DNA of 4,115 nucleotides, taken from a virus (Duplodnaviria; Heunggongvirae; Uroviricota; Caudoviricetes). The stretch is taken from IMG/VR virus record IMGVR_UViG_2695420514_000011; one strand, 5' to 3'. The number at the start of each line of letters is the position of its first letter. The stretch's first letter is position 1. A program made the position numbers and the translations under genes. Under the pieces are notes generated by a model. That model ran no database searches and was not told the origin of the DNA. It saw only the letters and a program-made list of their open reading frames with translations. Positions 3,953 through 3,974 of this stretch are shown one piece after another.

Positions 3953-3974
3953 AAAAAAAACCGCCGAAGCGGTT
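3953..3974 (-). terminator. Intrinsic-terminator-like hairpin in the T-H intergenic spacer
   Basis: Minus strand reads 5'-AACCGC-UUCG-GCGGUU-UUUUUU-3': a 4 GC-bp stem (extendable by two A-U pairs), a UUCG tetraloop closed by C-G, then a run of 8 U (plus-strand A8 at 3953..3960). It lies between the T-like stop (3983..3985) and the H start (3940..3942). The stem is short, so I call it weak or conditional. Confidence 0.4.

Follow-up and report, generated by a model that had tools for sequence, protein, structure and literature searches.

Lambda lom and bor are moron elements of the lambdoid late operon. Each moron is transcribed independently, from a promoter of its own to a terminator of its own (Juhala et al. 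2000, summarised in PMC3594210), and the gene for gp15 is located downstream of that for the tail chaperone and upstream of that for the tape measure protein (PMC3594210). In the HK97 record (NC_002167), a 'putative terminator' is annotated at 8398-8422, after gp15 (labelled a 'moron product') and directly before the tape measure gene, and in HK544 (JQ086374) a 'rho-independent terminator' is annotated at 8350-8372, just upstream of the tape measure gene. The orthologous hairpin is also annotated as a terminator in the records of HK75 and mEpX1.

The stretch of DNA analysed here (the window) is 4,115 nt from a Caudoviricetes virus (IMG/VR record IMGVR_UViG_2695420514_000011), and its minus strand carries all of its genes: the end of T, the tape measure gene H, M and the start of L. 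A preliminary description of this DNA had drawn attention to a UUCG hairpin followed by eight U at 3953-3974 on the minus strand, immediately upstream of H, and these coordinates fit exactly. The orthologous hairpin is already annotated in HK97-like genomes, and what the window holds is this known element in its cargo-free form. It is likely that the hairpin is an intrinsic terminator-type element which is a standing feature of the T-H boundary in HK97-type siphovirus tail clusters, and that it stops unmodified RNA polymerase while the Q-modified enzyme reads through it.

The resemblance to HK97 and HK544 is one of position and design. In all of them the hairpin precedes the start codon of a homologous tape measure gene by 12-16 nt, has the same orientation, and consists of a G+C stem with 7-8 U after it; in blastn, the 3′ arm and U-tract of the window align with those of HK97. 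In HK97 and HK544 the hairpin comes after the inserted gp15 gene, its stem being ACCCGCU/AGCGGGU and its loop AUCA, whereas in the window it comes directly after T, the stem (AACCGC/GCGGUU) is shorter, the loop is UUCG and the Shine-Dalgarno (SD) spacer differs. The window hairpin is found within ~25 nt upstream of an HK97-type tape measure start, which is the position of the HK97-type T-H terminator. HK022, tried as a cargo-free comparator, was uninformative, as its tape measure gene is unrelated and its gap is 19 nt and holds no hairpin.

Gene content and kinship of the window

The gene order, V-G-T-H-M-L, is that of lambda (Table 1 lists the genes within the window), but in lambda T and H overlap (ATGGCTGA), with neither a spacer nor a hairpin between them. 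T is a -1 frameshift extension of the tail assembly chaperone G, and is annotated in relatives as 'tail assembly chaperone' and by PGAP as 'phage tail assembly protein T'. In the relative L001, the T frame opens at a slippery run, GTTAAAAAAAAGTAG, at the end of G; the G/T frameshift site of this phage group (L001 6440-6480, outside the window) is apparently the A-run GTTAAAAAAAAGTAG and not lambda's G GGA AAG.

Table 1. Coordinates of genes and of the elements of the T-H boundary in the window
Feature	Position	Strand	Basis or remark
T, 3′ end	3983..4115	minus	last 43 codons, ending ...ALLTVSQ*; runs off the window
T stop codon TGA	3985..3983	minus	sequence reading
8-nt spacer GTCAACAT, T stop to hairpin	3975..3982	minus	varies among siblings (GTCGACAT, GTCAATAT)
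Hairpin 5′ arm AACCGC	3974..3969	minus	sequence and fold
UUCG tetraloop, c(UUCG)g, closing pair C3969-G3964	3968..3965	minus	sequence and fold
Hairpin 3′ arm GCGGUU	3964..3959	minus	sequence and fold
U-tract, 8 T	3960..3953	minus	first two T are base-paired to the 5′-arm AA
Shine-Dalgarno GGAG of H	3947..3944	minus	YGGAG kept in one class of relatives
In-frame ATG, longest-ORF start of H	3942..3940	minus	ORF list
Probable H start codon GTG	3936..3934	minus	SD spacing and homologue starts
Tape measure gene H, HK97 type	709..3936	minus	1075 aa from GTG
M homologue	375..773	minus	40% identical to lambda M
Start of L homologue	22..375	minus	ORF list

Several phages, vB_EcoS-689R5, Evi, phi467 and PhiR49_2, are ~95% identical across the whole window by megablast, and the same T-hairpin-H junction, with T directly before the hairpin (the empty allele), occurs in 856 of 5426 complete E. 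coli genomes, or about one in six. PhiR49_2 is lambdoid: it encodes cI, cro, O and S-R-Rz, as well as a Q antiterminator upstream of a single co-oriented late operon. Five strong intergenic sites with a hairpin and a run of U are present on the sense strand of this operon, one each downstream of the capsid gene, upstream of the major tail gene, at the T-H boundary, downstream of J and downstream of lom. The annotated start of the PhiR49_2 (L143) major tail subunit, at 25948, overlaps a strong hairpin and U-run site at 25960-25976 (region 25948-25976). In HK544 the corresponding position, ahead of the major tail gene, is annotated as a terminator; the major tail start codon of PhiR49_2 is therefore probably annotated too far upstream.

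Over its first 515 amino acids, the H protein of the window shares 68% identity with HK97 gp16. Its resemblance to lambda H is confined to the C-terminal ~320 amino acids (26% identity), and no significant similarity to lambda H was detected in the N-terminal ~750 amino acids; the part that resembles lambda H maps to 709-1700 of the window. The tail module is a distant relative of that of lambda throughout and not a lambda/non-lambda mosaic at the T-H boundary, because M is 40% identical and the C-terminal ~320 amino acids of H are 26% identical to their lambda counterparts.

These relationships bear on the proposal, made in the preliminary description, that the hairpin marks a recombination junction, for which a non-lambda-like N-terminal region of H had been offered as support. 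That support falls away, since the N-terminal part of H is HK97-like. A seam between lambda and non-lambda sequence was rejected on three counts: H is of the HK97 type, T has homologues in the relatives that share the hairpin, and the hairpin occurs across this type of tape measure gene. T and H are both matched in the hairpin-bearing relatives, so the hairpin belongs to that module and marks no seam. The part of the proposal that stands is that the interval from the end of T to the start of H is a swappable slot, with blastn similarity to other phages starting at 3974.

The tape measure gene is given as 709..3942 by the ORF lister, and the length of its product is 1075-1077 amino acids depending on the start codon chosen. 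The true start is most likely the GTG at 3936, which would make the ATG at 3942 wrong, because the SD sequence GGAG lies 7 nt from the GTG and only 1 nt from the ATG, homologous tape measure proteins begin with MATLRELI at the position of the GTG, the siblings L013 and L017 have ATG where the window has this GTG, and the depositor of ON470583 annotates the equivalent start. The preliminary description had put the T-H spacer at about 40 nt and the end of the U-run 10 nt before the start codon; both figures are correct when counted from the ATG at 3942 (40 and 10 nt), and they become 46 and 16 nt from the probable GTG start at 3936. In L008 (Salmonella phage FSL SP-016, 1541-1622), the annotated start of the tape measure coding sequence is 81 nt downstream of the conserved MATLRELI start.

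Anatomy of the hairpin

Read along the minus strand, the T-H interval is GTCAACAT-AACCGC-TTCG-GCGGTT-TTTTTT-CGTCCGGAGAATGAGTGTG. It contains a G+C-rich stem-loop, its stem and loop lengths inside the usual ranges of about 5-14 bp and 3-8 nt, with a U-tract directly 3′ on the sense strand, in an intergenic position between T and H, all of which are features of an intrinsic terminator. The stem has 6 bp, of which four are G-C and two A-U pairs. Like canonical E. coli intrinsic terminators, it is G+C-rich, is capped by a stable tetraloop and is followed directly by an uninterrupted U-tract, but by comparison with them it is short and weak (6 bp, about -7 to -8.5 kcal/mol). Read on the plus strand, this stem runs into TTATGTTG and not into a T-tract, so the hairpin is directional and co-oriented with the genes.

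A loose terminator scan lists the hairpin but is unspecific, returning 9 sites in the window and 4.1 +/- 2.5 in shuffles. By a strict rule, which requires a stem of 6 bp or more, four or more of these pairs being G-C, and six or more T in a row after it, this is the sole site on either strand of the window, and any site of this kind arises in just 16 of 1000 dinucleotide shuffles of the window. Chance occurrence was ruled out by these strict-rule shuffles together with the enrichment of such sites at T-H junctions over background windows that is described below.

Folding had been proposed as a check on the element, and its outcome depends on how much sequence is folded. The hairpin alone reaches -8.5 kcal/mol (z = -3.4), and 0 of 200 shuffles were as good; in a 66-nt context the minimum free energy (MFE) structure is a different fold, which is not better than shuffles (z = -0.12). 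Folding of the 66-nt context says nothing either way. The bare hairpin of the window, at -7.1 kcal/mol, is the third weakest of 47 orthologues, for which the median is -11.3 kcal/mol.

The alternative fold raises the question of a translational switch, in which the loop and 3′ arm (CUUCGGCGG) would pair with the region after the U-run and around the SD sequence (UCG-U-CCGGAG) and so control translation of H. This alternative helix (3944-3968 in the window) is the MFE structure of the 66-nt context, and relatives of the 'YGGAG' SD class allow comparable pairing at -6 to -11 kcal/mol, as in L006, L090, L128, L133, L136 and L137. Against a switch, shuffled sequences fold as well as the 66-nt context does, and in 46 of 47 sequences the terminator hairpin is the stronger of the two structures. 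The HK97-type 'AUGGGUGAAAU' SD class has no such alternative helix (0 to -3 kcal/mol), and the apparent covariation in L005 involves bases of the U-tract. A role for the hairpin as a switch is thus highly improbable, and as a general feature it is largely refuted, as it is confined to one SD class and is the weaker structure in 46 of 47 cases.

Searches of Rfam at a permissive threshold returned only sub-threshold matches to isrK and gyrA, and no known RNA family. The isrK (RF01394) match, over 3954..4038, would fit an Hfq-binding sRNA derived from the 3′ end of the T message and ending at the terminator, and there is a precedent in lambda, where an antiterminated operon contains terminator tL2a, at which the Hfq-bound sRNA PreS ends (bioRxiv 10.1101/2024.10.31.621285). 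The score of this match is 18.4 bits (E = 0.9) against a gathering score of 50. In addition, nothing upstream of the hairpin is conserved across alleles, where either T coding sequence or unrelated cargo is found, so there is no conserved seed for an sRNA, and we regard this reading as extremely improbable.

Conservation across T-H junctions

The element recurs in related phages. A set of 141 junctions was assembled from phage records, 80 IMG/VR relatives and 52 prophages from bacteria sampled at one genome per species; the prophages come from many genera of the Enterobacterales and from Pseudomonas (hosts include Klebsiella, Enterobacter, Kosakonia, Pantoea, Serratia, Pectobacterium and Pseudomonas), and their tape measure N-termini are 47-81% identical to the query. 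Among the 72 distinct junctions that these 141 loci represent, 64 have a terminator-like site within 70 nt before the tape measure start. Background windows of equal size contained such a site in 140 of 3227 cases on the same strand (~4%) and in 129 of 3227 on the other strand. The U-tract of the orthologues lies on the sense strand, 12-24 nt before the tape measure start.

Stems and loops differ widely between orthologues. The stems include CCGC/GCGG, CCUGC/GCAGG, CCCGC/GCGGG, GCUCGC/GCGAGC, CCUCGCG/CGCGGGG, CCCUC/GAGGG and CCCAGU/ACUGGG, and the loops UUCG, UGAG, UGUG, CUCG, UACG and AGAA, among others. When 46 distinct hairpins were aligned with MAFFT without reference to structure and the alignment was passed to RNAalifold, compensatory changes were found in all six pairs of the consensus stem. 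For a nine-pair helix, scored only on the sequences that yield an extractable hairpin (47 of 51 distinct), pairing is 92.5%, compared with 81.9 +/- 1.0 in shuffles and at most 59% in slid controls. The same helix shows 31 double-change cells compared with 6.3 in shuffles, its double changes fall in seven of the nine pairs, and 0 of 500 shuffles reach the observed values. The terminator-like anatomy first noted from the letters of one sequence is therefore borne out by conservation with compensatory changes, as it is by the 'terminator' annotations of HK97 and HK544.

Compensatory change also informs the possibility that the element acts at the DNA level, as a recombination linker whose short patch of homology serves module exchange and whose RNA structure is incidental. 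Such a linker is suggested by two boundaries, since blastn similarity to many phages starts exactly at the 5′ base of the hairpin (window 3974) and the indel that separates the window from its sibling L032 ends at the same base. The compensatory changes between lineages, however, preserve structure and not sequence, and in L010 the hairpin and SD spacer have been exchanged along with the cargo while the tape measure coding sequence is still 97% identical. This joint exchange of hairpin, SD spacer and cargo places the exchange points in the coding flanks (DPFA of T and MATLRELI of H) and not in the hairpin, and a linker is accordingly very unlikely.

Within the clade of the window itself, the 16-nt hairpin is invariant in 56 sibling loci (0 of 16 sites variable, against 22 of 120 upstream), and the U-run has 7 (18 loci), 8 (35 loci) or 9 (3 loci) residues; purifying selection on the hairpin in this clade is suggested by these counts but is not significant on them alone (about P = 0.08, an estimate).

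Conservation is not universal. About 10% of junctions are without a hairpin, and four lineages (L099, L110, L113 and L127) have kept the stem and lost the U-tract. Together, the lineages without a U-tract and the ~10% of junctions without a hairpin imply that termination is not indispensable, and that the hairpin itself may be selected. In L119 and L122-L124 the hairpin overlaps the T stop codon and no U-tract is present, and L100, L129 and L138 are among the prophage lineages that lack a U-tract or the element altogether; lineages of these kinds come from Pantoea, Silvania, Rahnella, Erwinia and others.

The T-H interval as a cargo slot

The open reading frame that ends before the hairpin is T itself in 74 loci, among them 16 prophages of other genera that have a divergent T, 12 of these with a full U-tract. 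In the remaining loci, the space between T and the hairpin is taken by cargo of at least 15 unrelated families. These include gp15/YebO-like proteins, proteins with a membrane segment and a zinc ribbon, a lipoprotein with a DPDSAKF motif, other lipobox proteins and one HNH-domain protein. Pfam recognises among them just the zinc ribbon, the YebO-like (gp15) family and HNH, and most of the cargo open reading frames encode lipobox signal peptides or small membrane segments. They are candidate superinfection-exclusion or defence genes. Cargo was observed between T and the hairpin in L004, L006, L007, L008, L010, L032, L075, L095 and L102, and also in L107, L125, L134, L136, L139, L141 and others. 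Each type of allele, including the empty one, ends in a terminator-like hairpin.

The sibling L032, whose tape measure N-terminus is 96% identical to that of the window, has a 113-amino-acid membrane/zinc-ribbon open reading frame between T and the same hairpin, and the 3′ flank of its hairpin is identical to that of the window. The difference between the two begins within the final 11 T codons and extends to the 5′ base of the hairpin. In this region (L032 1500-1960, window 3975-4010), the cargo allele replaces the end of T, which reads …DPFAEIEKALFVAAR against …DPFAGLENALLTVSQ. The replacement of the last 11 T codons in L032 places the left exchange point inside T, at the conserved GATCCATTTGC (DPFA). 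A promoter scan of the sequence before the L032 cargo gave no consensus match.

The type of hairpin follows the cargo family and not the tape measure lineage. For example, CCGC-UUCG-GCGG accompanies zinc-ribbon cargo in 9 of 10 variants, across tape measure lineages of 66-97% identity (these values are from search alignments, as ungapped identities are unreliable where indels occur), and other empty alleles have hairpins of other types than the CCGC-UUCG-GCGG of the window. L010, with a tape measure protein 97% identical to that of the window, has a lipoprotein cargo, a different loop and a different SD spacer. Because hairpin type tracks cargo family, and because the L010 and L032 alleles differ across the interval, the sequence from the end of T to the start of H behaves as an exchangeable cassette bounded by conserved coding sequence, of which the window carries the empty allele.

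Like the lambdoid morons, this terminator lies within a late operon under Q antitermination, at a place where related phages hold an extra, independently expressed gene. Unlike them, the window has neither the extra gene nor a promoter in the slot, and the terminator alone represents an empty slot. Between the T stop and the H start there are only 46 nt and no open reading frame, and this spacer has no room for a promoter of its own; the nearest promoter-like match, inside H at 3933..3905, scores 9/12 and is of a kind that shuffles also yield. Of the parts of a moron, it is the downstream terminator that is found, as the hairpin of the window shares its core with the one behind the zinc-ribbon cargo of siblings.

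One explanation for a terminator in an empty slot is that it is left over from a zinc-ribbon cargo gene lost by replacement or deletion, and that it persists without a present function. The core of the window hairpin is the type that accompanies zinc-ribbon/membrane cargo in nearly all variants, other empty alleles carry other hairpins, and L032 has cargo together with the same hairpin and the same 3′ flank, all of which fit such an origin. Against a relic, this empty allele is carried by 856 of 5426 complete E. coli genomes, and its hairpin is invariant in 56 sibling loci, where the U-run stays at 7-9. In addition, empty alleles with intact terminators recur in distant genera, and the 8 nt between the T stop and the hairpin contain no cargo remnant. 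Persistence as a functionless relic is quite unlikely.

Proposed function of the element

In the reading that we prefer, the hairpin is a conditional attenuator that is read through under Q, a role which the preliminary description had listed among its options. Read-through is plausible because a complete relative encodes Q upstream of one co-oriented late operon. RNA polymerase without Q modification would transcribe the c(UUCG)g-capped G+C stem and then the run of eight U, and would release its transcript before the ribosome-binding site of the tape measure gene. Such unmodified polymerase could come from any transcription that enters from upstream in the lysogen and, in sibling phages, also from a cargo gene ('moron') between T and the hairpin. 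During lytic growth, Q-modified polymerase from the late promoter would read through, so that H-M-L and the rest are made. The window copy of this terminator may be leaky, because its stem is among the weakest of the orthologues, though its U-tract is of full length.

Points that count against the terminator reading are the short, weak stem, the different MFE structure of the 66-nt context, the lineages without a U-tract and the junctions without a hairpin, and the lack of significance of the invariant hairpin within the clade of the window. To our knowledge, the empty allele has no prophage-active upstream promoter that would need termination, and this also counts against it. A search of the literature found no transcript 3′-end, reporter or in vitro termination result for the window copy or its orthologues, and PMC7067206 and PMC10884400 contain nothing on the T-H junction.

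A further explanation, which is compatible with a terminator, is that the hairpin is an RNA stability or dosage element in lytic growth, which either blocks 3′-to-5′ exonucleases after processing or terminates a fraction of the Q-modified polymerases, so that the major-tail/G/GT message would outlast or outnumber the H-M-L message. This would fit the low copy number of the tape measure protein, the retention of the hairpin in cargo-free alleles of many lineages, and the persistence of the stem in L099, L110, L113 and L127 after loss of the U-tract. It would also fit the similar hairpins that relatives have after the major capsid gene and on either side of the major tail gene, and the lack of translational overlap between T and H in the window, unlike in lambda. 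However, the consistent U-tract on the sense strand is what a terminator needs and not what an exonuclease block needs, and the cargo-bearing alleles require a terminator anyway. We regard a stability or dosage element as unlikely on balance. The narrower role of a 3′ stabilising hairpin for the upstream message, which was raised in the preliminary description, is neither supported nor excluded.

Alleles without cargo retain the hairpin from E. coli to Pseudomonas, and this leads to a broader but tentative proposal. The hairpin before H might itself be under selection in HK97-type tail modules whatever lies upstream of it, and, as more than the end of a moron, it might insulate or dose H-M-L or stabilise the V-G-GT message; it would then be the constant right end of a hypervariable cargo slot, the at least 15 cargo families of which, mostly lipoproteins or small membrane proteins, are candidates for new superinfection-exclusion genes. 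In empty alleles the hairpin may have such a phage-side role (insulation, dosage or message stability), or it may reflect descent from cargo alleles.

Implications for HK97-type tail clusters

The hairpin is an ordinary terminator-type element, the orthologue of which has been annotated in HK97-like genomes since these were first described. The modestly novel aspect is that the terminator persists whatever the cargo and flags a slot that is rich and easily mined. It is a reliable landmark for the T-H cargo slot, and small membrane proteins and lipoproteins expressed from prophages, such as those of the gp15 kind, can be collected at little cost by scanning the sequence from T to the hairpin.
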